Positions 18,255-51,443 are shown, numbered from the stretch's first letter. The stretch: DNA of 64,000 bases from an uncultured Gammaproteobacteria bacterium (GCA_964612595.1 CAZTFB010000003.1:32272-96271); one strand, 5' to 3'. Notes: generated by a model not told the origin, from the sequence alone. Made by a program: numbers and translations.

Positions 18255-18281
18255 ACAGTACCTTGCAATAAAAAGGTTTGA

Positions 18282-18365: not shown

Positions 18366-18512
18366 ATGGACATCTATTATATCGTCACGTATGTGACGAA
18401 GGATGGCGAGACCAAGACTCAGATTGTCAGCTCTGACAACCTCGAGTGGTTCAAGAGCTACGTCGCCTCACAGGGCGGCAGTGTCATTCATATTTCTTCT
18501 AAAATCTTTTAG
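18366..18512 (+). CDS. small hypothetical protein (48 aa) not in the ORF track
   Basis: ATG 7 nt after the RBS. Translation MDIYYIVTYVTKDGETKTQIVSSDNLEWFKSYVASQGGSVIHISSKIF. High GC. Confidence 0.35.
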   Translation: MDIYYIVTYVTKDGETKTQIVSSDNLEWFKSYVASQGGSVIHISSKIF

Positions 18513-18677
18513 TATACTCACCTATTTTGCCTCTGACCCCATAAAAACGGGATTTTGATTATATAGATGAAAATTTAAGAAGAAAAATGAAAATATATAC
18601 CGTACAGGTGCCAGCGGCCTAACCGCTGGCACCTGTCTCGGTACCTTCATTCGATAACACATCTCCTTTCTGGACCT

Positions 18678-19442: not shown

Positions 19443-19451
19443 ACTGACCTC

Positions 19452-20498: not shown

Positions 20499-20513
20499 CT
20501 GAGTGACCTCCTG

Positions 20514-22997: not shown

Positions 22998-23158
22998 CGG
23001 CCTTGTCCTTTCGAAGGTACCGAGTTGTCAAAGTTCAAAACTGAGTCTTTTCAGACACAGTCCTCCCACACATTGCGGAAGGGAATATATTATACCACGA
23101 GACACAAAAAATAGACTTATAGCAATAAACTACAAGCTTTTTTAAAAAGATTTCGCAG

Positions 23159-25541: not shown

Positions 25542-26585
25542 GTGTACAATACTGGCATGAAATATCCCCTACTCGTATCTAACCCAGCAAACATTTTTTA
25601 CCTTACGGGGGTGCACATTGAAGCCCGCGATGCGTGGGTTTTGCTTACTGAGAAAGAAACTCACTTCTTTACCGATGCTCGATATAGTGACGTGCTCGCA
25701 AGTATGAAAAGCCCCATCATTCCTCATGAAATTTCTGCATCTAGTCCGCTTTCAACACAGATCCAACAGCTACTCGCCGATTTGAACAAAGACTACATAT
25801 ATTTTGAAGCTGATAATCTGACCGTTTTAGAACTAGCTACGTTAAAAAAGAAAGTTCCTCTCACTTTTAAGTCGACAAACGGAATTATGACTAAACAACG
25901 AGAAGTTAAAACTCCTCAAGAAATCACAAAAATTAAAAAGGCATGCAACACAATTGACGCGTGTTTGTTTGATATAAAAAAACTTATCCGCCCGGGCTTA
26001 ACTGAATATGAGATTGCATATAAGCTTGATTCATGGCTTCGCGAAAAGGGGTATGAAAGCGCCTTCCCACCAATCATCGCCGTAAACGAACATGCAGCAA
26101 TCCCCCACTTCAATACCCAAAAGCATGGCACCAACAAAATTACTGAAAACAGCATTATTCTCATTGATGCTGGCGCGAAAGTTGATGGATATTGTTCAGA
26201 TATTTCTCGTATGTTTATTGTGGGAAAACCATCAACAACCTTTTTGAATATTTATAAGAAAATGCTTTACGTTCAGGAAAAAACTATTGCCAAATTAAGC
26301 ACAAGTAAAACATATAGTGAGGTTGATCTCTTTTGTCGCGGTGAATGTGAGAATCACAACATAGTCCCCCACCGACATGCGACAGGTCATGGAATCGGCA
26401 TAGACGTCCACGAGAAACCATACGTTAGTTTCACTTCGAAGGATGCTATAAAATCAGGTCAAGTTGTAACCATTGAGCCGGGAACCTATGTCGAAGGACA
26501 ATATGGCATTCGCATCGAAGATACTGTTTTACTAAACCCGGCTAGACTGCCAATAGTACTTACAAAATATCCAAAGGCGCTTTAG
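25542..26585 (+). CDS. pepP: Xaa-Pro aminopeptidase / M24-family metallopeptidase
   Basis: M24 pita-bread signatures (DAGAKVDGYCSDISR; HGIGIDVHEKP; TIEPG). 347 aa. Confidence 0.85.
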   Translation: MYNTGMKYPLLVSNPANIFYLTGVHIEARDAWVLLTEKETHFFTDARYSDVLASMKSPIIPHEISASSPLSTQIQQLLADLNKDYIYFEADNLTVLELATLKKKVPLTFKSTNGIMTKQREVKTPQEITKIKKACNTIDACLFDIKKLIRPGLTEYEIAYKLDSWLREKGYESAFPPIIAVNEHAAIPHFNTQKHGTNKITENSIILIDAGAKVDGYCSDISRMFIVGKPSTTFLNIYKKMLYVQEKTIAKLSTSKTYSEVDLFCRGECENHNIVPHRHATGHGIGIDVHEKPYVSFTSKDAIKSGQVVTIEPGTYVEGQYGIRIEDTVLLNPARLPIVLTKYPKAL

Positions 26586-26908: not shown

Positions 26909-29713
26909 TTAGCTCGTTTCTGCGCTTTCTTCTGCAAGTTTCTTTTGAATCTCACTAATTTTTGGGTCTGACTGTGCTGGTTGCTCATCCTTGTTTATTT
27001 CCTCGTCAATCTTCAATTCTTGTTGTAGTGTTTGTTCCTTTGCTGCCTCCGCTTGTTTTGGCATATCAATATCAACAAACTCTTCTTCAGATGTAACTTT
27101 ATTGCGAATTTCTTCTTCTTTCTGTATGTCGCGCTGAACTTGCTTAGCAGCCTCGACTTTGGCTTTGAGATAGACGAGAAGCTCCTCGCCCGATAGATTG
27201 TTAATCATAAATATGGGGAGAATAAACCCTACCTCGTCAAGACCTTGCTCCTGTAGCTTAATGTCTGAAGACATAATCTTGTTCAAAAGATTGCTGATCT
27301 TTATGACATCTTGCTCAACCCATTCGCTTCGCGAGGTAATATTTTCAGTAACTGGAATTTCGCCGTTTTCATACTGCTCAATCCACATCTTTTTAACTTC
27401 CTCATAATCCTCAATCGAAACTTTCTTTGAGGTTGGAATATGCTGCTCAATATGTTTTTCAGGTGCTGTCGCAACTTCGAGTTGGGCTTTTGCAACATTC
27501 TTAACGGTATCTTGTTCGACTTTCTCTTGTTGTGCAACTTCGCTTGTTACCGATTGGTCAGTCTTGACAATCACCGCTGTTTTAGAGATGACAAGCTTCA
27601 CCTGCTCCTCTTTCAATCCGGTTGCTTCTGCTGTTTTTTTGACGAGCTCGACTGTCGGGCCGTCAATCAAGTCAGGTGTACTAATGGTTTGAAGCACCTG
27701 CTGGGTTTTTGCCGGCGTAAGGTGGGTTTCTTGAGAAATGGTCTGCACAAAGCGTTGATTTACCGCAATGTTACTGAAAATTCTGCTGACAATATCACGC
27801 GTCTTTTCTTTTGGAATACTAAATTTAATGGCGATATTTTGGATGACCGGCACCATCTTTGGCATTGACTGTAAAATACGCTGCTTTGCAGCTTGTTGTT
27901 GCGCGACCGACTTTGAGGTAACTGAGGCTAAATTCTTTGCATCTTGATCACCTTTTATCGCACGACTTTGAATTTCGTCGCGCATATTCATTAGCTTCTG
28001 GCGCTCTGTTGGGGTCTCGGCCTTGAAAGGATTCTGTATCTTGTCGAGATTTCTGCGAGCTTCCTGATTCTCTGTTTTGTTTGTTTCGAGGCGCGCAATT
28101 TCTGTTAGATTAGACGCTTTCATATTCATCGATTGGACAATTGTTTCTGTACGCGCCATACGAATATCCTGTACCGTATCAAGATTAACTCTGGCCTTAA
28201 TCTCAACATCCTTAGGCAGCTTTAGTGCTAGGCCAGCAGTACCTGTTGGTCCTGCTACCGGTCCTGGCGTTGGTCCCTGTCCGGGAGGATTGCGCAGCGT
28301 GTCATACATCGATAAAAGAATATTCTTCATCGCGTATATGCCGTCACAACAGTAATCTCTGAATATGCGAAGGAGCCACCACGGCAATATTAGCACAGTC
28401 CATAACATAATCAATGCAATGACATATTCGGCAAATGTGTCGACATAGTTTGAGGTATTCCAGATGCCTAATGTTTGTGCAGGTCCTCCATATAGAATAT
28501 TGATAGAAGTTGGGTATACGGCTTGCGACATCTGATGGGTGCGAGAAAAATCAAAGACATACGGAATATGCGAGGGAGAATTCCAAATTTTTGCAAGCGA
28601 ACCAAGAAATAAGGCAAATAGCGGACCGTAAAAAACCCACTGGAAAAATACTCCGACCCAAATCCAACCAATGTTGCGAATAAACACCCAAGGGGCAAGA
28701 ATCGCTAAAAATGGCGATACAATAAGTAAGAACCAAAGAACGATCTTGCGCAGAATCATCATAATACCCAGGAAATAGTAGGTCATATTGGTAAACTTGA
28801 CCATAAATTTTGAGGTACGAACCATCTCAAAATTTTCTGCGTTCCAGTTTGTACAACCAATAAATTGTCGATACGCCTGCTCGCTCACCTTTGTCACATC
28901 CCCCTTAGTAAAATCGACAAAGAAAATGTTGAAGAGTTCACGGACACCAAGAGTGCGAATGAAGAATTCCATAACAATATCCGAGAGTTTAATAATAAGA
29001 AGAACAATCTGTGCAGAAAAGAGTACAAAAATTATCAATACCGCAAGTCGTATAACAAGAGGAGTGACTTCTATACCTAGATTGAAGTTGTTGCGCTGAC
29101 TTATGATGATGCCTAGGCCCATGATAATGGCGATGATTAAAATAAAGAATAGTGCAACATTTTGGGATAGCTTCCATACCTCGAGAATAGTTGGATGATC
29201 ATCTATTGAAGGTCTTGTAAGAACCCACAGCAAGAATTGACGAGATCGCTCCCCACCTTTGCCTAATGCTGTTATTTCTGGGTCTTCAACCCAAAAATTT
29301 CTGTTTTTATCGGCAAGCCATTCAGAGTAACTTTTTGCACAGCTTGCTGAATATTGTTCAGATTCTTTTTTACAGCGATCTTCAAGGAGTTTTTTCTGAT
29401 CTGCCGGCAAGGCAGGATCAATAATACATGCTGCGGCAAGGTTCGGACAATACGAACCTTGCCGCGCGCTTGAGGGCTTATCTCCCTGTCCGCTCGCACA
29501 TGGTTCTGGTTCAACAAATTGAGAAGGATCTGACAATGGTGTTCCCGGCTGTGGATAGTATTGAGCAGCTACAAAAGGCGCAAAAATAGACAGAAAAACA
29601 CTTGCCATCACAGCAACAACCAATATGATACGCGCCGACTTTTTCATGAATACTTTCATCATAAAGATAAGTCCCGACCTTTTCAAGACCTGGTCTTCTT
29701 GTATAATATCCAT
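26909..29713 (-). CDS. large polytopic membrane protein with Pro-rich linker and long coiled-coil C-terminal region, possibly VirB6/TrbL-like
   Basis: Signal/anchor (MKKSARIILVVAVMASVFLSIFAPFVAA), about 7 TM helices, a PPGQGPTPGPVAGPTG linker, then an about 430-aa K/E/Q-rich tail. The true start is probably an internal Met near 29650, because the listed start abuts the divergent spoU ATG with zero spacing. Confidence 0.5.
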   Translation of the reverse strand: MDIIQEDQVLKRSGLIFMMKVFMKKSARIILVVAVMASVFLSIFAPFVAAQYYPQPGTPLSDPSQFVEPEPCASGQGDKPSSARQGSYCPNLAAACIIDPALPADQKKLLEDRCKKESEQYSASCAKSYSEWLADKNRNFWVEDPEITALGKGGERSRQFLLWVLTRPSIDDHPTILEVWKLSQNVALFFILIIAIIMGLGIIISQRNNFNLGIEVTPLVIRLAVLIIFVLFSAQIVLLIIKLSDIVMEFFIRTLGVRELFNIFFVDFTKGDVTKVSEQAYRQFIGCTNWNAENFEMVRTSKFMVKFTNMTYYFLGIMMILRKIVLWFLLIVSPFLAILAPWVFIRNIGWIWVGVFFQWVFYGPLFALFLGSLAKIWNSPSHIPYVFDFSRTHQMSQAVYPTSINILYGGPAQTLGIWNTSNYVDTFAEYVIALIMLWTVLILPWWLLRIFRDYCCDGIYAMKNILLSMYDTLRNPPGQGPTPGPVAGPTGTAGLALKLPKDVEIKARVNLDTVQDIRMARTETIVQSMNMKASNLTEIARLETNKTENQEARRNLDKIQNPFKAETPTERQKLMNMRDEIQSRAIKGDQDAKNLASVTSKSVAQQQAAKQRILQSMPKMVPVIQNIAIKFSIPKEKTRDIVSRIFSNIAVNQRFVQTISQETHLTPAKTQQVLQTISTPDLIDGPTVELVKKTAEATGLKEEQVKLVISKTAVIVKTDQSVTSEVAQQEKVEQDTVKNVAKAQLEVATAPEKHIEQHIPTSKKVSIEDYEEVKKMWIEQYENGEIPVTENITSRSEWVEQDVIKISNLLNKIMSSDIKLQEQGLDEVGFILPIFMINNLSGEELLVYLKAKVEAAKQVQRDIQKEEEIRNKVTSEEEFVDIDMPKQAEAAKEQTLQQELKIDEEINKDEQPAQSDPKISEIQKKLAEESAETS

Positions 29714-30265
29714 ATGAAAAAGCTTGATGCGAAAGCTCTTCGTGGCCTAGATGAAAACGAAGACACACCCGAAATCCAGCGCTATCCCATTTTTTTTATT
29801 CTTGACAATATTTATGACACATATAATATAGGTGGACTTTTTCGCCTCGCTGATGGTCTCGCCATCGAAAAATTATATATATGTGGCGAATCAGAAACGC
29901 CTCCAAATCACCGCATAAAAAAGGCCTCGATTGGTACCTATAAAATTGTTCCTTGGGAATATTGCAAAACATCGACCGAAGCTATAAACGCACTTCGCAA
30001 AACACATCCAGACATTCATATCGCTGCTATTGAACAAGACCCCCGCTCAGTTCCCTATCACACACGAACATATACGGCACCGTTAGCTCTTATACTGGGT
30101 AACGAAACGACAGGCGTCTCTCCTGAAGTGCTTGATCAATGTGACAGTATTCTAGAAATCCCTATGTTTGGTATTAATATTTCATTAAATGTCATCGTCT
30201 CTGCTGCAATTGTCAGTTATCATGCGTATAACCAACTTGACATTCTGTCTACACAACAAGTATAA
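29714..30265 (+). CDS. SpoU/TrmH-family RNA 2'-O-methyltransferase
   Basis: SPOUT motifs (YNIGGLFRLADG; LILGNETTGVS; EIPMFGINISLNV). ATG at 29714 chosen instead of the overlapping upstream extension. Confidence 0.8.
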   Translation: MKKLDAKALRGLDENEDTPEIQRYPIFFILDNIYDTYNIGGLFRLADGLAIEKLYICGESETPPNHRIKKASIGTYKIVPWEYCKTSTEAINALRKTHPDIHIAAIEQDPRSVPYHTRTYTAPLALILGNETTGVSPEVLDQCDSILEIPMFGINISLNVIVSAAIVSYHAYNQLDILSTQQV

Positions 30266-30272
30266 ACATATA

Positions 30273-32765
30273 ATGGATACGCTTCCCGATCGATTGCGCG
30301 CACTAACAGAAAAGAAATACTTTGCAATTCTCGCTGTTGTGTTTTTTGCGTTCATAACAGCTATAGTTTTTGCCTTTCTTGCACAACAACCAACCGTTCA
30401 GAATGTAGATCAACTTCGTACCGATATACGACAAGGTGTGTCTTCTGATACATACAGCGGCAGTGATCGAACTGGAGGTAGGAATGGAGGTTTGACCGAT
30501 ACGACTGACGAACAACCTTCGCTCATCGAGCGCGTTGTATCGAGAATTACAGGAAGAAATACACAAACTACACAACGAAACAGCCAAAACAGTCCATCGA
30601 CAACCGATCCTGCCCAAGGCGGAACTCGCCCCGGTCAAAATATCTCAAGTGGTTCTGTCATACCTCCTGAAAATCAAGAGGAAACGCGTAAAAAAATTGA
30701 TGAAGTTGTTATGCCGCTACCAAAAGTGGTGGTTAAAGATTATGTGCTTCAAACCGAACTACCAAGCCCACCGCAAACAGCTAAAATATATAAGCTAAAA
30801 ACAAGCTATACAGATGCAGACATAGAAAAAATGGCTGCTACATTCGGGATGACATCACTAAAGAGCAATGACGTTGTGATTGAAAAAAATAATAGTGGTC
30901 TTACCCAGATATTTGACTTAAAAAACAATATCTATTTAGCGATCAACAATAGAAATGGTAGAATTTTGTTCTCTGCTCAAAATGGTATTCCAGCAGTTTC
31001 CCAAGGAGATCCCAAACAGAACGCGCTCGCGCTCGCGCGCTCGCTCGGCTTTTCACAAGCTTGTCTTAAAGCCACATCATCGTATACCAAACAATCAGAA
31101 CCTCACACAATTTTCGTCGATATCCATTGTGACTGGGAATCAGCTGGAGCTCCAATTGTAAATTACTTTGGCATTTTGAACTTACCACTAAATGAAGCAT
31201 TAAAGGATGTCTCACTTGGTGAACTCCCTTTAACATCTAGTGCTAATTCCGATGGTATAAAAGACGATAATACGGGAGAATTTTCTTCCCGACCAAACGA
31301 TTTTAATACCATTACGCTTCAACAAGACACGCTGACCGGCAACATAATGGGATTCAGTTCGAATATTATGCCTGTTGCCGCTGAAATTGAAGTAAGTGCA
31401 GATAGTATAATCCCCCCTTCCGATGGTTTTGAAAAGTTAAGAAATAATGAGAAACAGTTTGCATTCGCCGGCCCCCAAGGTGCAGGTGCTACAGATCTAC
31501 GTAACGTTTACATAAACAATACTGCCCAGGCAGAAAGCGTACAGCTCACTGACTTTGTACTTGCCTATCCTGTTGTGCCAGGCATAAAGCAAGAATATAT
31601 GTGTCCAGAATGGGTAACTCGCTCACAAGGACGACTCGAGAGCGGTTATGATGGGACATTTGTTGAGTCAGCGCGAGCTATTAATGATAGTCGCTGCTCA
31701 CGTTCCGCTGTACTCGGTACGAGCATAGCGCAAGCTGTCCTTCCAAACCCTATTCCGACAGTGATTGATCCTCTGTCGAGAGGCTCAACACTTCAATATA
31801 AAAACATCATCGTTCAGGGTGATCCGGTTACAGAATCATCATGTCCACCAAAGGCCTCCTTCACAAACGCCATGCAAATTTCAGAAGGTGTGTACCTATT
31901 GTGGATTGATCGCAATGAACGTGGACCAGGTATAAAAAGGTTAGGAATTGGTGGAACAGTTAAAGGTCCCATCACCCCACGCGAATGGTGGATAGGAACA
32001 ACAAGTGAACAACAAGTTGCTGGAGTACTAGGTACTGGAGAAAAAATTTCACCTGATAAAGTATCCTCTTATATGCGTTTTAGAGCTACCAGAGGAGTTA
32101 AAAGCACTATTGGAGATAGATCCGACAACCCTATATCGTCAGTACAAGGAACAATCGTCGCATGCAAATATCTTACAACTGGCTCACCGTCACTCTATAT
32201 TTATAGTTCGACGCAAAAAAGAGTGCACATTACACTTAATCCTGTTGGAGGTATCGTTTTTTCTCAACCAGCCCTCACAACATCGAACGGATGGAGTATT
32301 ACTACCCTCTTAGATGGCACTCTCGATTTTGGCAGCAACACAACAAACAATCGCGCCTATTATGAGTATGATAAGAAAGCATTGAGTGAAGCGCTTTCAA
32401 AGTTCAAATACGTTGAAACTGGTTATGTGGTCAAAAAAGATGAACTAATAGAGCTCTTTGAGAAGCACATTGCATCTGCAATACAGCTCAACGATGCGCA
32501 AACATATGATCTCGTTGGTGAGGTTAAGCGTGAGCTAAACTTAATTACTTCTCCCTATGCAAAAGTCGTCCTTTTGCCGCAAGCAGTGCTCGACGACGTG
32601 CTTCCTGTCGACATCACACCAACTCCTCTCAGTTTTAAAAGATACTTTTTCATCATAAGTGAGGCACATGCAAAAACCACACTTCAAAATCCATCGCTAT
32701 CGCCTATCACCAAAAACGAATTCTATGCTATCGAAACCGGTACCTTCTTTCATATAACCAAGTAA
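30273..32765 (+). CDS. large N-terminally anchored extracellular protein (~830 aa), unknown function
   Basis: TM helix (KKYFAILAVVFFAFITAIVFAFLAQQ), a Ser/Thr/Gln-rich low-complexity linker, and a long beta-rich ectodomain. Confidence 0.5.
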   Translation: MDTLPDRLRALTEKKYFAILAVVFFAFITAIVFAFLAQQPTVQNVDQLRTDIRQGVSSDTYSGSDRTGGRNGGLTDTTDEQPSLIERVVSRITGRNTQTTQRNSQNSPSTTDPAQGGTRPGQNISSGSVIPPENQEETRKKIDEVVMPLPKVVVKDYVLQTELPSPPQTAKIYKLKTSYTDADIEKMAATFGMTSLKSNDVVIEKNNSGLTQIFDLKNNIYLAINNRNGRILFSAQNGIPAVSQGDPKQNALALARSLGFSQACLKATSSYTKQSEPHTIFVDIHCDWESAGAPIVNYFGILNLPLNEALKDVSLGELPLTSSANSDGIKDDNTGEFSSRPNDFNTITLQQDTLTGNIMGFSSNIMPVAAEIEVSADSIIPPSDGFEKLRNNEKQFAFAGPQGAGATDLRNVYINNTAQAESVQLTDFVLAYPVVPGIKQEYMCPEWVTRSQGRLESGYDGTFVESARAINDSRCSRSAVLGTSIAQAVLPNPIPTVIDPLSRGSTLQYKNIIVQGDPVTESSCPPKASFTNAMQISEGVYLLWIDRNERGPGIKRLGIGGTVKGPITPREWWIGTTSEQQVAGVLGTGEKISPDKVSSYMRFRATRGVKSTIGDRSDNPISSVQGTIVACKYLTTGSPSLYIYSSTQKRVHITLNPVGGIVFSQPALTTSNGWSITTLLDGTLDFGSNTTNNRAYYEYDKKALSEALSKFKYVETGYVVKKDELIELFEKHIASAIQLNDAQTYDLVGEVKRELNLITSPYAKVVLLPQAVLDDVLPVDITPTPLSFKRYFFIISEAHAKTTLQNPSLSPITKNEFYAIETGTFFHITK

Positions 32766-32808
32766 TTACTTCTTGACTTTTTTTTACACAATTATTAGTG
32801 TTAATGAT

Positions 32809-34683
32809 ATGCAGGTGTCAAAAAAAGCATTTCGTTTTTTGTTTTCTTTAAGTTTAGTTGGATTTGCTACAAGTCTTCTTTTTAGCTCATCTGCTCACGC
32901 ACAAGGAACTCGTGTTGAATCTCCTGCATGTGAAAATACAATCTGGGTTTGCCCAAGCGTTACTGATTTGGGGCCAAACAATCATGGCATACACACCTTG
33001 AAGCTCAATGCAACTGGCCTCCCCACAACTGATCCACAAAATGGTGCACCAATACAATGGTATACCGTATGTGGTTACGATGATCCGACCAGAGGACAAC
33101 TTTTTTCATCTAACGATAAAGAAACAGACCGACAGCTGTGTTTAGGCGAAGATACTCTTGACTATATGTCGCGCCCTGTTCCATTTTCAGGTGGTCAGTT
33201 AAGCAACTGGTCTATGCAAATGCTCAATGGCTCAACATCGCCAACCACCACATCAAATGGCAATCTTGAGGTGTATGTACGACCGAGATCAGTCAATGTC
33301 CAAAATCATACGTGTTTCTTTGTTGCTAAAACTACGCCATCTGTTGTTGGAAGAGATGAGACAAACGTCGCAGCAGGATCGAAAGATACAGACAGCCTAA
33401 CTTACGCTACTTTTCGTACACAAGGCGAACCTGCAGCATGTCTTTCAGTCCGCGCCGACCCCTTTGGGCGCATTTTTAATGATGCTTTAAAGCCCGTTCC
33501 TGGAGCAGTGGTTAACATTTACGACTTCAACAGCAAGGCGCTCATAAAGATGCCTGGCGTACCAAACCCGGTCGTCACACGCGAAGATGGCATGTTTAAC
33601 TTCAATATCGAGCCGGGTACAAGCTATCTCACCGCAAATCTCACCAATACAGAAGTTACAAAGGTACATCCAAACGCAGTACTTGCCTACAGCAATATAT
33701 ATAAGTATGGCGATCCAATAGTAGAAACACTCAACAATCCGGAACAGCGTGATATTCCTGTTCAAGGAGGACTTCAGCCCGTTCTTAAAGTAATGGGATT
33801 CAGCCATCTCCAACTTGGAGAACAAACACGCATCGAAGGTCGCGCCTCATGGCCTCTTACACAAGTCAATGTCATGCAAGGCACTGTTTCCATCGCACAG
33901 CAGAACGCCGATAAGTTTGGTGGCTTTAGCTTCTTTATAGACAACGGTTCTATCGACCCATCTCAACAACTTAGACTCGTACTTACCGAGGTCGACATGA
34001 CTCAAGGCACGCCAGTCATACCTACAAATCCAAGAACTATTGAGCGAATTTTTGATCCAATCGCCCGTTATCTCGAAGGATACGCCTACGATAAAGCAGG
34101 AAGACTTATGCCTTTTGCTACTGTCCGCATTGTGCTCGACAACACTGACGTCGTCTACTATGAAACAAAAGCAGACGATAAAGCTTTTTATTCTATAAGT
34201 CCAAAATTCCTCCCTATTCTTCCCTACCATCTCGAGTATAGTCCAGCAAATGTTGTACCGGAGCCAGCCAACACAATTAAAGTAACTCTGCCTGAGTTTG
34301 TAAAGAGAAACAAAGAGTATCATGATACAAACCTCATAAGTCCAATGAAAGGTACAAAAAATGGTGTCCAAGTTGATCCTGGAGCATATGTAAAGAACAA
34401 GATGCAGGCTAAAAATGGCCAGGATAACACTACGGGAAATGAGCGCATGCGAGGAGGAAATAATGACCCATACAATAAAATGGGAAATAAAGGTGGCTCA
34501 CCACTTGAAAACCTTGCGCTTGCAACAGGCCAGTCCACAACGACACTTCTTGTAGTTCTCATTGTGCTCTTTATCGCAGTCGCTGTTACCCTTGTTCTCT
34601 ATGTGCGCAATCAGCGCACTAGTCTTATGTCATCAAAAAAATCTCGTGAATACGATGACGAAGAACCCGAAGAAATGGTATAA
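32809..34683 (+). CDS. secreted protein with C-terminal TM anchor, unknown function
   Basis: Signal peptide (MQVSKKAFRFLFSLSLVGFATSLLFSSSAHAQG). C-terminal helix (TTTLLVVLIVLFIAVAVTLVLYV) plus a short acidic cytoplasmic tail. Possible CarbopepD-regulatory-like beta-sandwich segment. Confidence 0.5.
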   Translation: MQVSKKAFRFLFSLSLVGFATSLLFSSSAHAQGTRVESPACENTIWVCPSVTDLGPNNHGIHTLKLNATGLPTTDPQNGAPIQWYTVCGYDDPTRGQLFSSNDKETDRQLCLGEDTLDYMSRPVPFSGGQLSNWSMQMLNGSTSPTTTSNGNLEVYVRPRSVNVQNHTCFFVAKTTPSVVGRDETNVAAGSKDTDSLTYATFRTQGEPAACLSVRADPFGRIFNDALKPVPGAVVNIYDFNSKALIKMPGVPNPVVTREDGMFNFNIEPGTSYLTANLTNTEVTKVHPNAVLAYSNIYKYGDPIVETLNNPEQRDIPVQGGLQPVLKVMGFSHLQLGEQTRIEGRASWPLTQVNVMQGTVSIAQQNADKFGGFSFFIDNGSIDPSQQLRLVLTEVDMTQGTPVIPTNPRTIERIFDPIARYLEGYAYDKAGRLMPFATVRIVLDNTDVVYYETKADDKAFYSISPKFLPILPYHLEYSPANVVPEPANTIKVTLPEFVKRNKEYHDTNLISPMKGTKNGVQVDPGAYVKNKMQAKNGQDNTTGNERMRGGNNDPYNKMGNKGGSPLENLALATGQSTTTLLVVLIVLFIAVAVTLVLYVRNQRTSLMSSKKSREYDDEEPEEMV

Positions 34684-34690
34684 CATTTCT

Positions 34691-35425
34691 ATGCGCATCA
34701 ATATACGTACTCTACTGCTACCTTTAATCTTCTCTGCGCTCATATTATGTGCGACTTCCAATACTTATGCACAAGAGAAAACATACGACCTAAACAAAGT
34801 ACGTATGAAAATCTTTCATCTTTTGAACTTTTCACCTGCCGATAACACATTAGTTCCGCATCCTGGTTCAGGCACAAAAACAACCCCTACCCCTACACCG
34901 ACCTCTCCAGGTGGAGGTGGCTCGGCAAGCTATACACGTATATATATTGCCGAGCCGAGCGGAGATAATGTGGTAGGTGGTGGCAGTTTTAACCCAAGTA
35001 CGAACATATATCGTCTCGTAATAAACAAAACTGTACCTTTAAAGTCTAAGACTGCCACGAACAAATATGTGTTATGGCTTACTAAAACCACCGTCACCCC
35101 TCAGCTTAATGAATTCGTAGCTTCCTTTGAGGCAAGTTCATTGCCGTCAATCGATAAGCCATATACAAAAAATCTCTCAGATTACAATGAGCTGATAGTA
35201 ACCGAAGAAAGCTCAGCCTCTCCTGTAACACCAAATCTTGGCGCCATAATTATTAGAGGCATTCTCCAAGCTCCCGCAGCTGCAACACCAACACCTCCAC
35301 CACCCACTCCTACGGCCATTGTGCCTGCGACGCCAACACCTTCTGGTAGCGGGCAAAGTGGTGAAGATGTGGGTGGACTCTTCGGGAGTATAGAAAATAT
35401 CTTTCGCGGATTATTCGGGTTATAA
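34691..35425 (+). CDS. secreted Thr/Pro-rich protein
   Basis: Signal peptide (MRINIRTLLLPLIFSALILCATSNTYAQE). TPTPTPT and PTPPPPTPT linkers. Stop is 12 nt before tRNA-Thr. Confidence 0.45.
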   Translation: MRINIRTLLLPLIFSALILCATSNTYAQEKTYDLNKVRMKIFHLLNFSPADNTLVPHPGSGTKTTPTPTPTSPGGGGSASYTRIYIAEPSGDNVVGGGSFNPSTNIYRLVINKTVPLKSKTATNKYVLWLTKTTVTPQLNEFVASFEASSLPSIDKPYTKNLSDYNELIVTEESSASPVTPNLGAIIIRGILQAPAAATPTPPPPTPTAIVPATPTPSGSGQSGEDVGGLFGSIENIFRGLFGL

Positions 35426-35437
35426 ACAGATAGTGTG

Positions 35438-35509
35438 AGCCGATGATGGGAATCGAACCCATGACCCCCTTCTTACCAAGAAGATGCTCTACCACTGAGC
35501 CACATCGGC
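35438..35509 (-). tRNA. tRNA-Thr (anticodon GGU)
   Basis: Reverse complement folds as GCCGATG acceptor, D-arm GCTCAGTGGTAGAGC, anticodon stem TCTTC/GAAGG with loop TTGGTAA, and T-arm GGGTTCGATTCCC. Confidence 0.8.
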
Positions 35510-35570
35510 ATGTTAGCTACATCTGCAATTATACACAACCCAGTTCACATTAGGGGTATAATTACAACAT

Positions 35571-36023
35571 ATGGTGTTAAAGCGCATCTTCCCTACCAAA
35601 GACAAAGAAGAAGAACGTCATAAGCAGGCAGTAGCTAAAATGATCTTTCTTACCATCGTTGGTCTGAGCATTTTGGCGGCATACATTCTTGTCGATACTA
35701 ATAAAAATACCCCAGAAGCCCAACCGCCTAAGACACTTGGCGAAGAAACTGTTGCCCGTGCAGAAGAGCAAGACAAAGCCCTTGCAAAGAACATATCCGA
35801 AGGCGTCGATACAGTAAAAGATACTGCAGAATTTCTTCAATTGGAAATAGAATCAACAACTCAAAATGCCGTTCAGGAGGGAAAAAAGCAAGTAGAAAAC
35901 GCTGCTAATGAGCTGCTCTACAGCAAAGCGTTAAAACCAATCGTAGACAAAATCGAAGACCTCCCACCCGCCCAACAGGAACAACTTCGTAGACAGATAT
36001 GTCCTATAGTTGACACCGAGTGA
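35571..36023 (+). CDS. small membrane-anchored protein (150 aa)
   Basis: One TM helix (MIFLTIVGLSILAAYILV), then a charged coiled-coil-like region. Confidence 0.4.
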   Translation: MVLKRIFPTKDKEEERHKQAVAKMIFLTIVGLSILAAYILVDTNKNTPEAQPPKTLGEETVARAEEQDKALAKNISEGVDTVKDTAEFLQLEIESTTQNAVQEGKKQVENAANELLYSKALKPIVDKIEDLPPAQQEQLRRQICPIVDTE

Positions 36024-36038
36024 AACTTATAGTATAAT
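36010..36038 (+). promoter_or_regulatory. consensus sigma70-like promoter TTGACA-17-TATAAT
   Basis: TTGACA at 36010-36015, a 17-nt spacer, and TATAAT at 36033-36038. Lies 11 nt upstream of the ATG at 36049. Confidence 0.4.
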
Positions 36039-36048
36039 ACCCCTTCAT

Positions 36049-36702
36049 ATGAAAAACCTTGGTATTCTTGGACTAACAGTAATGATATTTCTTATCGCCG
36101 CAGGTCAGGCCCATGCTGGTCAATATGGCCCATACGATGGTAAGAAACCCTCACTTGCAATTACTGTAGATAAAAAAGTCGGTCTTCCTCAAAACACTAC
36201 TAAAGGTGGGCAAACTGAATATGCCTACGTAGACAATCTCACAAGTGCAGATCGTCGCTTTGTGCCCCAGGAACATGTATTTTTTCAGATCAAAGTAAAA
36301 AATACCTCAAAAGTTCACTTAGATAATGTCGTGCTTCGTGATTATGCTCCCGCTTATGTTGAGTTGTTTGAAAATCCTGGAAGTTTCGACGGAAAAGACA
36401 CGGTCTTACACGTTGGCACACTCCAACCAGGTGAAGAAAAAGAATATATATTTAAGGGTCGTATTGTTGCCTACAATCAGCTTCCTGCTGACAAAGGTGT
36501 CGTATGTACAACTAACAAAGTTCGCGCATCAAATGATAAAGTTGCTGATGAAGATACGGCTCAGTTTTGTATTGAAAAAACCGTTACTAGCGTAAATCCA
36601 CCTACAGATATTCCAAAAACTGGTCCAGAACATGGTATTCTCATCATGGTTTCTGCACTTGGTTCAGCCATCACAGGCCTAAAGCTTCGTCGATCTCGCT
36701 AA
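36049..36702 (+). CDS. cell-surface protein with DUF11-like repeat domain and sortase-type C-terminal sorting signal (IPKTG)
   Basis: Signal peptide. IPKTG followed by a hydrophobic helix and a KLRRSR tail, the LPXTG-class architecture. Confidence 0.55.
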   Translation: MKNLGILGLTVMIFLIAAGQAHAGQYGPYDGKKPSLAITVDKKVGLPQNTTKGGQTEYAYVDNLTSADRRFVPQEHVFFQIKVKNTSKVHLDNVVLRDYAPAYVELFENPGSFDGKDTVLHVGTLQPGEEKEYIFKGRIVAYNQLPADKGVVCTTNKVRASNDKVADEDTAQFCIEKTVTSVNPPTDIPKTGPEHGILIMVSALGSAITGLKLRRSR

Positions 36703-36726
36703 AGAAAAACTGTATACTAAGTTCAT

Positions 36727-39153
36727 ATGACCGCGCTTTCGTATTTGCAAATTCGTACGCCTAAAGAGGATGAGACGCCTATTGAGGCGACAACTCAGAT
36801 TTTTTCCTCACTCCTACCCTCTTCCACAAAGTGGTGGAAAGTTATTTTTAAGAAACAGGTTGGCTATAGCTTCGAAATATATCTTTTGGGTCAACGCATT
36901 TATTTTTATCTCACCACACCTACATCGAAAGAAACATTCGTAAAAAGCTTGATTGCTTCTTCATTTCCTTCTTCAGCAGTGGTAAAAACAAAAGATCCGC
37001 TCGATTTTGTCCTTTCATCGCCGTATATAGCTACTGGCGAGGCTGTTTTAACAAACGACTTCTATTTGCCCATTAAATCCTATACTGAATTTAAGGGGGT
37101 CGACTCCCTTGCTTCGCTAGTTGGATTTCTTGCTAAAGGATCAACACAACAAAAAGCCGTCATGCAGGTTCTAATTACACCCGCAACGTTCCCATGGCAA
37201 AAAATGGCTAATAAACTCGCGAACCCTGCCCCATCAGCAGATGGCGAAAAAGCCGCTCCAGTCTCGGGAAGAGCGCTTATAGGCCAAAAAACAGCCTATC
37301 TGGGCGGTAAAGCACTAATAAGGATTCTTGTGGGGTCTGGTGGCCCTGAGGCAGGTACGTTTATGGATCATCTCATCGGAACCTTTGGCGCCTTCGCCAT
37401 GGGCGAAGGCAATCAATTTAAGCTCAAAAAGCCACGTGATAAAAAAGCATTTGTTTTGAGCGTAAAAGAGCGTGCAACACATTTTTTTGAGCATCGAGGT
37501 CAGATTTTGAACTCAGCTGAGCTCACCACATTATGGCATCCACCAGGCCTTATGCTCGCAGGAGTAAAAAATATAGCTTGGGGAAAGACACTTGCTGGTG
37601 AGCCTCCAGAAAATATTCCGATCCCTGAAGGCATGAGTGATGAAGAGAAAAAAGATGTTAACTTCTTCGCTCGAACTGAATATAAAAATAAAGAACAGAT
37701 TTTTGGTATTAAAACATATGACCGACGAAAACACGTCTATATTATTGGTAAAACAGGCGCAGGTAAATCGACGCTTATTGCTAATATGGCAATCGACGAT
37801 ATTCGCCGTGATCGAGGTGTTGGTATTATTGACCCCCACGGCGACCTCACCGAAGCTGTGCTTGATTATGTGCCTAAGCGACGTATAAACGATATTGTGT
37901 ACTTAGAACCGTTTGATCTTGAGCGTCCGTTCCATTTGAATATTCTCCAGGTTCCAAATCCTGAGCAAAAACACTTAGTAGCCTCAGGTATTGTATCGAT
38001 TTTCTATAAATTATATGGAGATGTAAGCTGGGGACCTCGTTTAGAGTATATTTTGCGTAATCTTGTGCTTACTTTGCTCGACATTCCTAATGCAACGCTC
38101 CCCGATGCGCTGCGCATCTTAGCTGATGATAAATATCGCGCGCGCGCGCTTGAAGATGTGCGCGATCCGGTCGTAATGGCTTTCTGGAAGAAGGAATTCG
38201 ATAAAATGCCGGATCGTATGAAAGCTGAGGCCGTCTCACCTCTTCAGAATAAGATTGGCCAGTTTGTGACGGCGCCTATGATTCGTAACATTATCGGAAG
38301 CCCCAAATCGACCATTGACCTCGCTGAAATTATGGATGAGCGTAAAATTCTCCTTTTGAACCTATCTCAGGGAAAACTTGGAGAAGATAATGCAGCACTT
38401 CTTGGTGCTATGTTTATTACGCAACTTCAGCTCGCCGCTATGAACCGCGCGTTCAAAAAAGAAGAAGAGCGTCAAGATTTCTTCCTGTATGTCGATGAGT
38501 TCCAAAACTTTGCCACAAGCTCATTTATTAAAATACTCTCTGAGGCAAGAAAATATCGCCTTGCACTCACGTTAGCAAATCAATATATCGATCAGCTCGA
38601 CGAAGATGTCAGTCGCGCTATATTCGGTAACGCGGGCACACTCGTTTCCTTCCTCGTCGGCGCCCGCGATGCAGACCCACTTTCCAAAGAATTTGGAGGC
38701 ATCTACTCAGACAAAGATCTCGTATCGCTTGGAAAATTTGAAATTGTGCTTAAACTCTCTGTTGATGGTCAAACATCTATGCCGTTCCCCGCGCGTACGC
38801 TCCCGCCGCCTAGCCTCAAAAATGACAACCGAGAAAAAATTATCCGCCTTTCTAAAGAGAAATATGGACGCCCTGCTCCAAGCACAGATACAATCAGCAC
38901 GCGCTCATACCCAATTTCAGAACCAAGCACAAGTAAAGTTGAAAAGCCAGTTGTAGAACCACAAGAAGTACCAAGCAAACCACAAAATAGCACAAGTATT
39001 GCCCATATTGTCCGCTCGCACGAAGAAAAGTCGTCTCAACCTCATCGACAGCCACATCAGGGTAGTTCAAGTCAAGGCAGTGGTCAAAATAGGTCCAGAA
39101 ACAACCGTTCACGTCCAAGACATTCTCAGAGACCTTCCGAGCGTAGATCTTAA
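36727..39153 (+). CDS. FtsK/HerA/VirB4-superfamily P-loop ATPase (probable type IV secretion / conjugation ATPase)
   Basis: Walker A (YIIGKTGAGKST) followed by IDPHGD, and Walker B (FFLYVDEFQNF). No TM helices. The about 110-aa C-terminal tail is S/Q/R-rich low complexity. Confidence 0.55.
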   Translation: MTALSYLQIRTPKEDETPIEATTQIFSSLLPSSTKWWKVIFKKQVGYSFEIYLLGQRIYFYLTTPTSKETFVKSLIASSFPSSAVVKTKDPLDFVLSSPYIATGEAVLTNDFYLPIKSYTEFKGVDSLASLVGFLAKGSTQQKAVMQVLITPATFPWQKMANKLANPAPSADGEKAAPVSGRALIGQKTAYLGGKALIRILVGSGGPEAGTFMDHLIGTFGAFAMGEGNQFKLKKPRDKKAFVLSVKERATHFFEHRGQILNSAELTTLWHPPGLMLAGVKNIAWGKTLAGEPPENIPIPEGMSDEEKKDVNFFARTEYKNKEQIFGIKTYDRRKHVYIIGKTGAGKSTLIANMAIDDIRRDRGVGIIDPHGDLTEAVLDYVPKRRINDIVYLEPFDLERPFHLNILQVPNPEQKHLVASGIVSIFYKLYGDVSWGPRLEYILRNLVLTLLDIPNATLPDALRILADDKYRARALEDVRDPVVMAFWKKEFDKMPDRMKAEAVSPLQNKIGQFVTAPMIRNIIGSPKSTIDLAEIMDERKILLLNLSQGKLGEDNAALLGAMFITQLQLAAMNRAFKKEEERQDFFLYVDEFQNFATSSFIKILSEARKYRLALTLANQYIDQLDEDVSRAIFGNAGTLVSFLVGARDADPLSKEFGGIYSDKDLVSLGKFEIVLKLSVDGQTSMPFPARTLPPPSLKNDNREKIIRLSKEKYGRPAPSTDTISTRSYPISEPSTSKVEKPVVEPQEVPSKPQNSTSIAHIVRSHEEKSSQPHRQPHQGSSSQGSGQNRSRNNRSRPRHSQRPSERRS

Positions 39154-39181: not shown

Positions 39182-39472
39182 GTGTCGTATATGCTCAACG
39201 AGAGTGATTTGGGGAAAATAGGAAATGTACTCGAAATGAAGCTTCATAATGCGCTTGAGCCCATTCATGAACGCCTTGATCGCATTGAGAAACGTATTGA
39301 GGCATTAGAAATGCGCGTATCGTTACTTGAAAAACGCATGGACAAACTAGAAAAGGAAGTGCGTGAGTTTAGATTCGAATTCAATGCTATTGTTTACCAA
39401 AACAACGAAAGATTTGGAGATCATGAAGATCGTATAGTTGAACTCGAGGAGAAGTCTAAAACCGTAAATTAG
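39182..39472 (+). CDS. small coiled-coil protein (96 aa)
   Basis: Heptad-like repeats (RLDRIEKRIEALEMRVSLLEKRMDKLEKEV). Confidence 0.4.
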   Translation: MSYMLNESDLGKIGNVLEMKLHNALEPIHERLDRIEKRIEALEMRVSLLEKRMDKLEKEVREFRFEFNAIVYQNNERFGDHEDRIVELEEKSKTVN

Positions 39473-41262: not shown

Positions 41263-41481
41263 ATGGACAGTGTTTTCGGTCGGTTCCTGCTCAAGCAGGC
41301 GGCGGCGGCGGTGCTCGGTTTCATCAGCACCATCGTCGTACTCGGTGTGATCCTCTTCATCCAGAACAACTACATGGGCGGCGTCTTGAACGCCGGTGTG
41401 TTCTTGTTCATCGGATGGGGGGTCAGCTGGAACTGGTGGTTCTCCACCATCTGCTTCTTCATGGACCACAGCGACAGCTAA
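41263..41481 (+). CDS. small two-TM membrane protein (72 aa), high GC
   Basis: RBS AAGGAGG upstream. Two hydrophobic helices. Confidence 0.4.
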   Translation: MDSVFGRFLLKQAAAAVLGFISTIVVLGVILFIQNNYMGGVLNAGVFLFIGWGVSWNWWFSTICFFMDHSDS

Positions 41482-41512
41482 CCTACGCAAACGAACTAAG
41501 GAGAAACAGCAC

Positions 41513-43150
41513 ATGAACGCGAAGCTCATCAAGTTCTTGCTCATCGCCGTCCTGGCGGTGAGCACCATGGTCCTCACGGGTTGCACCGCTTTCGGCGGAC
41601 CGAATTCCGGGAAGCCGGCTTCGGAGATGACCGTCAGCGAGGCGCTCGGGCTCGGCAACGCCCAGGCCTCCGAGGCCGTGACCGGAACGCAGCAAGTGGC
41701 AGTCGTCGGCGAGACGATCGACGCGGCGCAGTACGCCGCGGACGTCCAGCGCACCATCGATGAGGTGGCGGGGCTCGAGGCGGCGATCCGCAACGAGGGC
41801 TATACGTGGGCTGACGACGTGAAGACCTGCAGTGGCAACACGCAGGAGAAGCACGTCTGCGCCAACACGGCCCTTGCGAAGATCAAGAAGGCCTTCCCCG
41901 ACCTGGTCGTCGGCAGCGGTGGCAATACCGCGGTCGCGAACCAGGCGCAGGTCGCAATCGGTGCGTTGAGCCAGGCGAATAGATGGGCAACGTCCGTTTG
42001 GATCTGTCTGAAGCCCGGTGAGACATTGACCGGCCCCTCCCTCAGCGGCAAGACGATCACCGTAGGCTACCCCAAGGGCGCGAAGCTCATCAAGGTAGCC
42101 ACCGGCGAGATCGTGAACCTCGAGGAATGTGGGTCGGTCTGTCACCCGAACGAGGACGCCAACGGCAAGCCGACGTCCAACGCCGAGTGCCACATCTACA
42201 ACGTCGTTGTTCCCCCGCCTGGCGGTGGTGGCAGCGGTGGAAGTGGCGGTGCAGGCGGACAAGGCGGAGCCGGAGGCGCAGGTGGTGCTGGCGGAGCCGG
42301 AGGCGCAGGTGGTGCTGGCGGAGCCGGAGGCGCAGGTGGTCGGGGTGGCGAAGTTCCCCCGCCGTTCTGGTGCTTCTGGTGCCCGCCGCCGTGCACGACG
42401 TGTCCGACGCCGGTGCCGCCGACGAACACGCCGATCGTCATCAACGACGGCTGCGTCGTCGGTTGCGGCCTGCACTGGAACTCCCCTCAGGAGGCCAGGG
42501 CTTACGGCTGCAACGGGCCGTTCGTGATCGGCAGCTGCCCCACGGCGACGCCGACGTTGGTTCCGACATGCGTCCCCGGATGCGTGGTCACGGTCGAGCC
42601 GACGGCGACGAACACGCCGAGGGGGCCGGTCGATACGGCGACCCCGCCGCCGACGTTCATTCCGCCGACGGCGACGCCAACGGCTACGGCGACGGTGGCG
42701 GCGTGTACCTTCGAGTGGTACGCGGTCTGCGCGAACAGCGCGGTCTGCCCGAGGGGGAACGTTATCCCCAAGGGCGAGGCCGTGCTCATCCAGGTGATCA
42801 ACCGTGACGACACGGCGAAGGTCACCCGGGTTTGGCTCCGGGTTCAGCAGGTCAACCCTGACAAGGTGGACACGCAGGACCTGGTAACGCCTGGGGGGTA
42901 CCAACAGACCGACGGTTGGATCTTCAAGTGCCCGCAAGGCGCGCTCGATGCGGTGACCCCCGACATTCCGTCGTTCCTCGCAGCTCAGCTGCGGAGTCAG
43001 TGGAACGTCATCACCTCCGGGCGGGCCGGGTACGATAAGGTCGTACCGACCGGTTCCGGATGGACCGTGCGCGTCTGCCACGCGTACGAAGACGGCCGAG
43101 GATGGCAGCCGGTTCCCGGCTTCAATCCGGCCGTAGGCTGCGGCGAGTAA
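41513..43150 (+). CDS. lipoprotein with Gly/Ala tandem repeats and a Pro/Thr/Cys-rich region (545 aa), high GC
   Basis: RBS AAGGAGA. Lipobox LTGC after the signal helix. (GAGGAGGAG)n tract, then PPPFWCFWCPPPCTTCPTPVPPT and further C-rich modules. GC about 65%. Confidence 0.6.
   Translation: MNAKLIKFLLIAVLAVSTMVLTGCTAFGGPNSGKPASEMTVSEALGLGNAQASEAVTGTQQVAVVGETIDAAQYAADVQRTIDEVAGLEAAIRNEGYTWADDVKTCSGNTQEKHVCANTALAKIKKAFPDLVVGSGGNTAVANQAQVAIGALSQANRWATSVWICLKPGETLTGPSLSGKTITVGYPKGAKLIKVATGEIVNLEECGSVCHPNEDANGKPTSNAECHIYNVVVPPPGGGGSGGSGGAGGQGGAGGAGGAGGAGGAGGAGGAGGAGGRGGEVPPPFWCFWCPPPCTTCPTPVPPTNTPIVINDGCVVGCGLHWNSPQEARAYGCNGPFVIGSCPTATPTLVPTCVPGCVVTVEPTATNTPRGPVDTATPPPTFIPPTATPTATATVAACTFEWYAVCANSAVCPRGNVIPKGEAVLIQVINRDDTAKVTRVWLRVQQVNPDKVDTQDLVTPGGYQQTDGWIFKCPQGALDAVTPDIPSFLAAQLRSQWNVITSGRAGYDKVVPTGSGWTVRVCHAYEDGRGWQPVPGFNPAVGCGE
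42266..42340 (+). repeat. 27-bp tandem repeat (about 2.8 copies) encoding the Gly-Ala tract
   Basis: GGAGCCGGAGGCGCAGGTGGTGCTGGC repeated head-to-tail inside the lipoprotein gene. Confidence 0.7.
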
Positions 43151-51439: not shown

Positions 51440-51443
51440 AATA

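Follow-up and report, generated by a model that had tools for sequence, protein, structure and literature searches.

At positions 26,909 to 39,153 of a 64,000-nucleotide stretch filed under an uncultured Gammaproteobacteria bacterium (GCA_964612595.1 CAZTFB010000003.1:32272-96271; this whole stretch is hereafter the window), genes for a 934-amino-acid (aa) polytopic membrane protein and an 808-aa ATPase stand 7 kb apart, with a SpoU-family methyltransferase gene and a tRNA-Thr between them and several surface-protein genes around them. Both proteins point to a type IV secretion system (T4SS), the former to its VirB6 subunit and the latter to its coupling protein. An earlier reading of the sequence alone, here the original prediction, had linked the region to a Candidate Phyla Radiation (CPR) organism, and homologues of the two proteins from Microgenomates, Roizmanbacteria and other Patescibacteria metagenome-assembled genomes bear this out: the region belongs to the ordinary chromosome of a CPR bacterium within the Microgenomatia (Roizmanbacteria-related). 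Bacteria of this kind account for a considerable part of bacterial diversity and seem to live on other cells. All the open reading frames (ORFs), the tRNA and the sequence motifs named in that prediction were found again at their places using ORF calls, ARAGORN and Rfam, and the homologues of each large ORF number in the hundreds to thousands, so that none of them is a chance frame. Rfam detected no rRNA gene in the window. The features of the region and its borders are as follows, with coordinates of the full open frames, several of which probably have internal starts.

25542-26585, plus strand: M24 (Xaa-Pro type) peptidase, a housekeeping gene; convergent conserved neighbour of the VirB6-like gene and marker of its synteny
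26909-29713, minus strand: extended VirB6/TrbL-like polytopic membrane protein (934-aa ORF), assigned from topology, transitive TrbL matches, fold and context
28589-29140, minus strand: putative core homologous to TrbL/VirB6 within the 934-aa protein (residues ~192-375, from TM1 through TM4; TM, transmembrane helix), placed by alignment A3
29714-30265, plus strand: SpoU-family RNA 2'-O-methyltransferase (Pfam SpoU_methylase, 107.7 bits); probable start, internal to its frame, at 29714
30189-32765, plus strand: 858-aa surface protein with an N-terminal membrane anchor (one TM helix, residues 46-64); probable start near 30270
32773-34683, plus strand: 636-aa surface protein with a signal peptide, a CarboxypepD_reg-like immunoglobulin-like (Ig-like) or beta-sandwich domain and a C-terminal TM anchor; probable start near 32809
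34562-35425, plus strand: secreted Pro/Thr/Gly-rich protein, 287 aa, lineage-specific, with a signal peptide; probable start near 34691
35437-35509, minus strand: tRNA-Thr (anticodon GGU), by ARAGORN and Rfam (70.1 bits)
35571-36023, plus strand: 150-aa membrane-anchored protein (TM helix at residues 24-42)
36010-36702, plus strand: sortase-substrate surface protein, 230 aa, with a signal peptide, a DUF11/CLIPPER domain and an IPKTG tail; probable start near 36049
36727-39153, plus strand: VirD4-type coupling-protein homologue, 808 aa, assigned from coupling-protein domain models and alignments to plasmid coupling proteins
39182-39472, plus strand: 96-aa coiled-coil protein, directly downstream of the ATPase, with generic coiled-coil Pfam matches only

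The 934-aa protein begins with a signal peptide and a Cys-rich ectodomain (residues ~50-175), followed by five strong hydrophobic helices (186-204, 223-241, 314-332, 351-369 and 430-448), a Pro/Gly linker (~476-497) and a helical C-terminal half. From the signal peptide and the positive-inside rule (Arg after TM5), the N-terminus is predicted to lie outside and the C-terminus inside, with five TM helices in between. An AlphaFold2 (AF2) model built from an 80-sequence alignment (mean pLDDT 81.5) gives the C-terminal half as a folded helical domain (pLDDT ~85-95 at residues 510-870) and not as the long coiled-coil tail proposed earlier, and this cytoplasmic domain of ~430 aa ends in a conserved module (~756-860). 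Such an architecture fits the "extended VirB6" type, which has five or more helices and a large C-proximal hydrophilic domain (PMC12857230). At 29711-29716 the palindrome CATATG holds the ORF start of the 934-aa gene (minus strand) and, back-to-back with it, that of the SpoU gene (plus strand); the true start of the 934-aa gene is probably an internal Met near 29647, ~66 nt downstream of the ORF start, which leaves a divergent promoter region of ~70 bp.

A profile search of 1.84 billion representatives (E <= 1e-3) showed that the 934-aa protein belongs to a large Microgenomatia family of 731 clusters at 50% identity, and it is the divergent members of this family that lead to VirB6. The Pfam family TrbL (PF04610) was matched by six of nine and then by 19 of 42 divergent members (26-38% identity), each matching the profile of the 934-aa family at E <= 1e-103; the best TrbL match reached E 3.5e-7, and two members (P0361 and P0380) attained the Pfam gathering score with 26.0 bits versus 25.9. 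These matches are always in register, profile positions ~2-176 corresponding to window residues ~192-375, onto which the TrbL-matching stretches of six divergent members were placed via alignment A3, and no other family recurs comparably. When the AF2 model was compared with the PDB by Foldseek, the single high-probability match was TrwI, the VirB6 of R388 (7o3v_F; probability 0.87, TM-score 0.52 normalised to TrwI), and every match ranked above it had a probability of <= 0.12. Furthermore, the hidden Markov model (HMM) of the family aligns at TM1-TM2, with E 1e-8 to 1e-11, to short VirB6 proteins standing inside complete T4SS clusters of three relatives (loci L015, L016 and L019; L and P numbers are our labels for loci and family members).

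The gene context of the family in relatives, counted over 80 metagenome loci, leads to the same system. VirB4, TrsD and PrgI genes lie within 6 kb of the VirB6-family gene in five of the 80 loci (L107, L111, L152, L154 and L157), where the order is VirB4<-TrsD<-PrgI<-two genes, then a cohesin gene, a gene like that of the 636-aa protein, the extended VirB6 gene and the M24 gene. VirB2-like T4SS_pilin genes were found near the VirB6-family gene in 11 of the 80, as well as in L083, L084 and L090: in L083, a complete Roizmanbacteria genome, and in L084 the orthologues of the 934-aa gene stand 3-5 kb from two T4SS_pilin genes, and in L090, a locus with nine or more pilins, a family member follows directly after three pilin genes. 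Based on the transitive profile matches, the tentative fold match and this gene context, the 934-aa protein is assigned as a highly divergent extended VirB6, so that the VirB6/TrbL likeness suspected in the original prediction is recovered, via these routes and not by a direct match.

Some members of the family are giants of 2,100-3,266 aa (P0241, P0242, P0275 and P0288) with 8-17 separately matching stretches, which suggests tandem multiplication of the C-terminal helical modules. Another polytopic protein of the window, of 980 aa with ~11 TM helices and no Pfam match (44643-47585), was also considered as a VirB6 candidate, since in L002, L003, L009 and L022 it occurs again close to the ATPase; what spoke against it was its place next to a GT4 glycosyltransferase, which it follows (43360-47585 for the pair), and its likeness to a membrane glycosyltransferase.

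The commonest neighbour of the VirB6-like gene is one encoding a homologue of the 636-aa protein, present in 49 of the 80 loci and thus a conserved partner of the extended VirB6, followed by cohesin-domain proteins (40 of 80) and the M24 peptidase (34 of 80). Both the partner and M24 genes adjoin the VirB6-family gene in L001, L083, L084, L085 and L092 too, and in the five loci bearing VirB4 the partner gene stands between the VirB4-TrsD-PrgI block and VirB6. The 636-aa protein matches Pfam CarboxypepD_reg at E 1.1e-4, below threshold; a PrgI/VirB3-like protein of L015 (8425-9891, minus strand) is fused to a CarboxypepD_reg/SdrD_B-type Ig-like domain of the type weakly detected here. The surface proteins announced by the original prediction are likewise real. 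The 858-aa protein has no Pfam match and is lineage-restricted, its homologues being seen only in close syntenic relatives (L085, L092, L093 and L094), and a 508-aa protein of the pilin/VirB6 locus L090 contains a counterpart of its C-terminal ~215 residues (E 5e-12). Neither Pfam nor NCBIfam matched the 287-aa protein, which has a homologue only in the closest relatives. The 230-aa protein reaches 32.9 bits for Pfam DUF11 (cutoff 24.6) and ends in IPKTG-PEHGILIMVSALGSAITGLKL-RRSR, that is, the motif, hydrophobic stretch and basic tail of a sortase substrate; no sortase gene was found among the scanned window ORFs. In L005, L011 and L092 a DUF11/LPXTG protein of this kind is encoded directly upstream of the ATPase, and in L009, L014, L017 and L018 (Microgenomates) within 10 kb of it; a homologue of the 150-aa protein is found in L085 and L092, and a small gene holds the position of the 96-aa coiled-coil gene in L092. 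The genes for the 150-aa, 230-aa, 808-aa and 96-aa proteins form a probable operon, with the 150-aa gene as the first.

The 808-aa ATPase consists of a soluble N-terminal domain (~1-300), a P-loop ATPase domain (~330-715) that bears a helical insert, and a tail (716-808) that is basic and rich in Ser, Arg and Gln. Its motifs are GKTGAGKST (341-349), IDPHGD (368-373) and LYVDEF (587-592), the first and the last of which (Walker A and B) are invariant across 51 homologues. It had been placed in the VirB4/HerA class; the T4SS ATPase superfamily stands, but by sequence the class does not. Above the Pfam gathering thresholds are TrwB_AAD_bind (34.6 bits, cutoff 20.5), DUF87 (27.2), T4SS-DNA_transf (25.3, cutoff 20.1) and TraG-D_C (24.4, cutoff 22), and the best NCBIfam model is the VirD4-like CD1115 (54 bits, E 1e-14), whose equivalog cutoff of 250 is not reached. 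In comparison, the VirB4 models scored 15.4 bits (TIGR00929, cutoff 643), 16.7 (CD1110, cutoff 325) and 16.6 (Mbov_0397, cutoff 590), and the HerA model 14.4 (cutoff 970). FtsK_SpoIIIE was not detected in the window ATPase and gave ~11 bits in close homologues (cutoff 24), and no NurA-like gene was found among the scanned window ORFs; by profile scores, then, the protein groups with neither HerA/NurA nor FtsK. A true VirB4, that of L015, matches P-loop_TraG and AAA_10, whereas the window ATPase matches neither, and a search of PDB sequences with the ATPase family profile put TrwB first and returned no VirB4.

Outside CPR, relatives of the ATPase are found on plasmids. A tblastn search of 72,556 plasmids gave 613 records, including a type IV coupling protein (T4CP) of an Embleya plasmid (E 4e-76), whose operon also encodes PrgI, another ATPase, a relaxase of the replication-relaxation family and an NlpC/P60 hydrolase. 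On a 27.5-kb plasmid of B. subtilis (NZ_CP154917.1), an 885-aa "DUF87" protein aligns to residues 36-712 of the ATPase (E 2e-44) and is followed by a relaxase of the same family, conjugal-transfer genes and an ATPase of VirB4 size. On both plasmids the relaxase gene comes directly downstream of the homologue. In blastp, the VirB4-type proteins of the Bacillus and Embleya plasmids matched the window ATPase only at E >= 0.09, and PrgJ of pCF10 gave no match at E <= 10. The N-terminal domain (36727-37700, residues 1-330) is covered by the precomputed Pfam family PF26449 in most homologues and is partly common to the Bacillus and Embleya plasmid T4CPs. By sequence, the 808-aa protein is therefore classed as a VirD4-type coupling protein, and not as a member of the VirB4 or HerA class.

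More than 3,900 homologues of this ATPase were found, with 56-90% identity among the 120 listed, and relatives occur in 597 stretches of species-representative genomes from Microgenomates, Saccharibacteria, Dojkabacteria, Gracilibacteria, Peregrinibacteria, Berkelbacteria and many Parcubacteria groups. It is a core chromosomal CPR gene, located mostly among housekeeping genes. We studied its context in 80 genome loci of species-representative genomes, 10 kb around the gene, with neighbour clustering over 82 loci, and orthologues inside full T4SS clusters were found in three to four of the 80, including L015 and L016 (Gottesmanbacteria) and L019. These three clusters lie beside dnaA-dnaN and consist of an M23 peptidase, VirB4, a TrsD-like protein, a PrgI-CarboxypepD_reg fusion, the T4CP orthologue, a TrbL-like protein and a T4SS_pilin array. 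The orthologues in them (48-49% identity) are transcribed divergently from PrgI-TrsD-VirB4, and a broader HMM found the shorter TrbL-like proteins 4-6 kb away from them. Among the 82 loci the recurrent neighbours are a sigma-like helix-turn-helix (HTH) protein, directly upstream in 29, together with SecDF, topoisomerase I (TopA) and DnaB. This HTH protein of ~359 aa, located ~0.2-1.5 kb upstream of the ATPase in 29 loci among L036-L082 (Saccharibacteria and many Parcubacteria), carries, by eye, a sigma-70 region-4-like HTH and a HARE-HTH-like C-terminus; it is linked to the ATPase more tightly than any T4SS gene and is a possible clue to the regulation or role of the ATPase.

The arrangement of the window as a whole is kept in relatives at ~86% identity (L092 and L094). 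At 62% identity, L085 keeps the VirB6 block with no ATPase beside it, and L011 has a contiguous DnaB-MBL-SpoU-DUF11-ATPase order without the VirB6 block. As the 7-kb proximity is kept at ~86% identity but not in L085 or L011, it is lineage-specific; the gene cluster described by the original prediction moreover has the SpoU gene inside. The SpoU gene is an interleaved housekeeping gene and not a part of the secretion system, and the tRNA-Thr, present also in the syntenic locus L085, is an ordinary chromosomal tRNA.

Since both families are tied to T4SS clusters elsewhere, the best reading is that the window holds two dispersed pieces of one system, the chromosomal T4SS already known from CPR bacteria, and not a conjugative element or its remnant; we hold this to be quite probable. 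Known features of the CPR system are its monoderm ancestry, missing relaxase, pilin arrays and mostly unlinked T4CP homologues (PMC10633639, PMC12102498, PMC12857230). In a published census, 5,713 VirD4-type homologues were counted in 2,918 CPR genomes, only 148 of them near virB4, virB4 was located near dnaA in many Microgenomatia, relaxases were rare, and VirB6 was scarce in Microgenomatia, "suggesting extreme sequence divergence" (PMC12102498). The T4SS was reported to be essential in a Saccharibacterium, and no coupling protein or relaxase was recognised in that system (PMC10633639).

Several observations weigh against this reading. The 934-aa protein itself has no direct Pfam, NCBIfam or PDB sequence match and no TrbL match at E <= 0.1, so that its link to VirB6 is transitive, and two profiles of its family (A1 and A3) retrieved nothing relevant from Pfam or the PDB sequences. 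The fold match to TrwI has an E-value of 1.6, by itself not significant, and hhalign of the family against PrgH of pCF10 gave a probability of 0.8%, with a single-sequence template that makes this a weak test; likewise, hhalign of the family alignments against single pCF10 PrgH, PcfC and PrgJ sequences (all < 3% probability) and hmmsearch, run locally on pCF10 proteins with narrow HMMs of the families, were uninformative. For the ATPase, a Foldseek search with an AF2 model of moderate confidence (pLDDT 69.5) placed full-length TrwK, a VirB4, first (E 4e-9, ~890 columns, TM-score 0.33), followed by DotL (4e-7), TrwB (2e-6), HerA and Cag-beta, and because TrwK ranks above TrwB the ATPase may have a VirB4-like two-domain architecture; we read this model-based ranking as a probable sign that members of one superfamily share a two-domain layout. 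The ATPase departs from canonical VirD4 in having no hydrophobic helix or membrane anchor, and 50 aligned homologues have none at the N-terminus either; the Bacillus plasmid T4CP is without a TM anchor as well. The ATPase stands near the VirB6-family gene in only one of the 80 VirB6-family loci, and the two are neighbours only in the close relatives L092 and L094. In S. epibionticum the t4cp gene was reported to be non-essential and the other T4SS genes essential (PMC12102498), for which reason the ATPase may work apart from the T4SS. Finally, VirB4, TrsD, PrgI/VirB3 and the pilin array would presumably lie elsewhere in the genome, where a single window cannot show them.

The main rival turns these last points into a different account, in which the two genes are neighbours with no functional relation: the pilin/VirB4 apparatus would be served by the VirB6-like protein together with its 636-aa partner, and the soluble ATPase would have been exapted for a cytoplasmic task of its own, such as the handling of DNA or nucleoprotein, the two being brought together through lineage-specific gene order. 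To the count of one in 80 and the VirB6 block of L085 that lacks an ATPase, it can add that none of the 80 ATPase loci has a close homologue of the 934-aa protein within 10 kb, the typical neighbours being the HTH protein, SecDF, TopA and DnaB; that the conservation of this ATPase family without TM helices is unusually high for a T4SS part; and that the non-essential t4cp is possibly exapted (PMC12102498). However, the orthologues in L015, L016 and L019 stand amid complete T4SS clusters, close to the TrbL-like gene and pilin arrays, and the full-length homologues on the Bacillus and Embleya plasmids are T4CPs of conjugation operons, which leaves this account unlikely, if still a serious competitor.

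Much less likely is the account, following from the original prediction, that the region is a Gram-positive-type conjugative element, or the remnant of an integrative and conjugative element (ICE), inserted at tRNA-Thr with a VirB4-class motor, VirB6 and adhesins. In its favour, the ATPase is closest, outside CPR, to T4CPs of conjugation operons with relaxases, LPXTG-type adhesins accompany Gram-positive T4SSs such as that of pCF10, and a tRNA lies in the middle of the region. However, a Pfam scan of 49 window ORFs turned up no relaxase, integrase, VirB4, VirB3, VirB8 or pilin, and tblastn and blastp with pilin, VirB4, TrsD and PrgI queries from L015, L083, L084, L090 and L152 returned only noise in the window. 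The tRNA-Thr was rejected as an integration site, as no att-like direct repeat derived from it exists in 25-40 kb and the GC content is uniform (0.40-0.44) across 26-40 kb; the SpoU and tRNA genes are conserved in synteny in L085 and L092. Together with the interleaved housekeeping genes, the vertical conservation of both key genes across hundreds of CPR species and an ATPase that is not VirB4 by its profile scores, this indicates that the region is not a mobile element. A small HTH_17/MerR protein of excisionase type (60698-60958) adjoins a 687-aa protein without a Pfam match; it lies 22 kb from the region, and no recombinase was seen nearby. Lastly, the possibility that the 934-aa protein has no relation to VirB6 and is some other polytopic protein of the envelope, its TrbL and TrwI matches arising from generic helical-bundle composition, would suit the missing direct matches, the poor TrwI and PrgH values and the lack of any match to its TM domain by tblastn among the 72,556 plasmids, but it is hardly credible given that TrbL alone recurs among the divergent members, in register and twice at gathering score, that TrwI is the sole high-probability fold match, and that the VirB4-TrsD-PrgI and pilin context is independent of both.

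If the window does hold two dispersed pieces of one T4SS, the first (26.9-34.7 kb) would comprise the extended VirB6, divergent from an operon encoding the two membrane-anchored surface proteins of 858 and 636 aa. By analogy with VirB6/TrwI, its TM domain may form a membrane platform or channel base for the passage of VirB2-like pilins and substrates, the ~430-aa cytoplasmic helical domain could dock ATPases, and the ectodomains of the 636-aa and 858-aa proteins would span or decorate the cell wall. The second piece (35.6-39.5 kb) would be the operon of the small membrane protein, the sortase-anchored DUF11 protein, the soluble VirD4-type ATPase and the small coiled-coil protein, where the ATPase, judging from its family, would act as a ring-forming ATP-driven translocase that passes substrate to the channel; that the two pieces work jointly is likewise what we infer. 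We know of no one who has identified the substrate of the CPR chromosomal T4SS, a system that is essential in the one lineage tested. As no relaxase is present, its role probably lies in host interaction or some other non-conjugative function, in line with earlier proposals for CPR, and plasmid or ICE transfer by it is unlikely.

The CPR T4SS itself has already been described, and what is new here is a candidate for the Microgenomatia VirB6, with a conserved partner and a conserved cytoplasmic extension. Going one step further, the 934-aa family could be the "missing" Microgenomatia VirB6, its ~430-aa helical domain and an obligatory Ig-like 636-aa partner new parts of the system, and the anchor-less T4CP a core non-conjugative motor, a proposal on which we are evenly divided. 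A channel subunit with a specific surface partner offers targets for structural and genetic work in Microgenomatia as well as better profiles for T4SS detection, and we suggest that annotation of the region name VirB6-like and T4CP-like parts of a chromosomal T4SS, dispersed among housekeeping genes, and not a mobile element.

The remainder of the window encodes housekeeping proteins (DnaB, M24 and M29 peptidases, Lgt, carbamoyltransferases, Maf, YebC, peptide deformylase and ribosomal protein L10) and further secreted or surface proteins with LysM, M23, cohesin, dockerin and subtilase domains. The carbamoyltransferases are tandem genes of the aspartate/ornithine family (10704-12588; 313 and 317 aa). 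A GC-rich island at 18000-23000 (0.55 versus a background of ~0.42) holds an M23 peptidase and two unknown proteins, the 348-aa one with a third-position GC content (GC3) of 0.76. The M23 peptidase (827 aa, two TM helices, 20514-22997) is kept next to DnaB in L092, and because an M23 gene adjoins VirB4 in L015, the one in the window might be the wall hydrolase of the system, an analogue of VirB1. Another GC-rich stretch (41396-43150, plus strand; 0.55, GC3 0.79) has long ORFs on both strands, of which the plus-strand reading looks real; in its protein, which has no Pfam match, are a lipoprotein-type signal (…LTGC), a long GGAGGAGG repeat and stretches rich in Cys, Pro and Thr, and this part of the window may be foreign or subject to an unusual composition. 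At 49452-56835, secreted proteins form a cluster with two cohesin domains, one dockerin and unknowns.

Among known systems, Prg/Pcf of the Enterococcus plasmid pCF10 resembles the region in that a monoderm carries genes for surface proteins, including a sortase-anchored one, together with those for T4SS membrane proteins and ATPases. However, the surface proteins of the window have no sequence similarity to PrgA, PrgB or PrgC, the 934-aa family has none detectable to PrgH, and the window is without VirB4 (PrgJ), PrgI, PrgK and relaxase and is not part of a mobile element. With the VirD4/TrwB/TraG coupling proteins of the soluble-N-terminus type, as on the Bacillus and Embleya plasmids, the ATPase shares the Walker A/B P-loop domain, the all-alpha insert and the TraG-D_C region, and its homology to the Bacillus protein, encoded directly upstream of a relaxase gene, is full-length and includes part of the N-terminal domain. 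It differs from the plasmid T4CPs in being chromosomal, near-universal in CPR and highly conserved, with a basic low-complexity tail and usually no relaxase beside it, and from canonical VirD4 and PcfC in lacking their two TM helices.

The VirB6/TrbL family (PF04610; R388 TrwI, PDB 7O3V; extended VirB6, PMC12857230) shares with the 934-aa protein the five-helix core, the predicted N-out/C-in topology, the large C-proximal hydrophilic domain, possibly the fold, to judge from the TrwI match, and, in relatives, nearby genes for VirB4, VirB3 and VirB2. Set apart from it are the Cys-rich N-terminal ectodomain, the ~430-aa helical domain without a known counterpart, the Ig-like partner and the monoderm host. 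Compared with the CPR chromosomal T4SS (PMC10633639, PMC12102498), the window holds VirB6-like and T4CP parts only, and its VirB6 comes from a long family (800-1100 aa and more) that standard VirB6/PrgH profiles miss. In common with that system are the monoderm MPF-FATA-like parts, the chromosomal location, the lack of a relaxase and VirD4-type genes usually far from virB4, and in relatives also the VirB2-like pilin arrays, the M23 and other wall hydrolases nearby and the Microgenomatia clusters by dnaA-dnaN, as in L015, L016 and L019.

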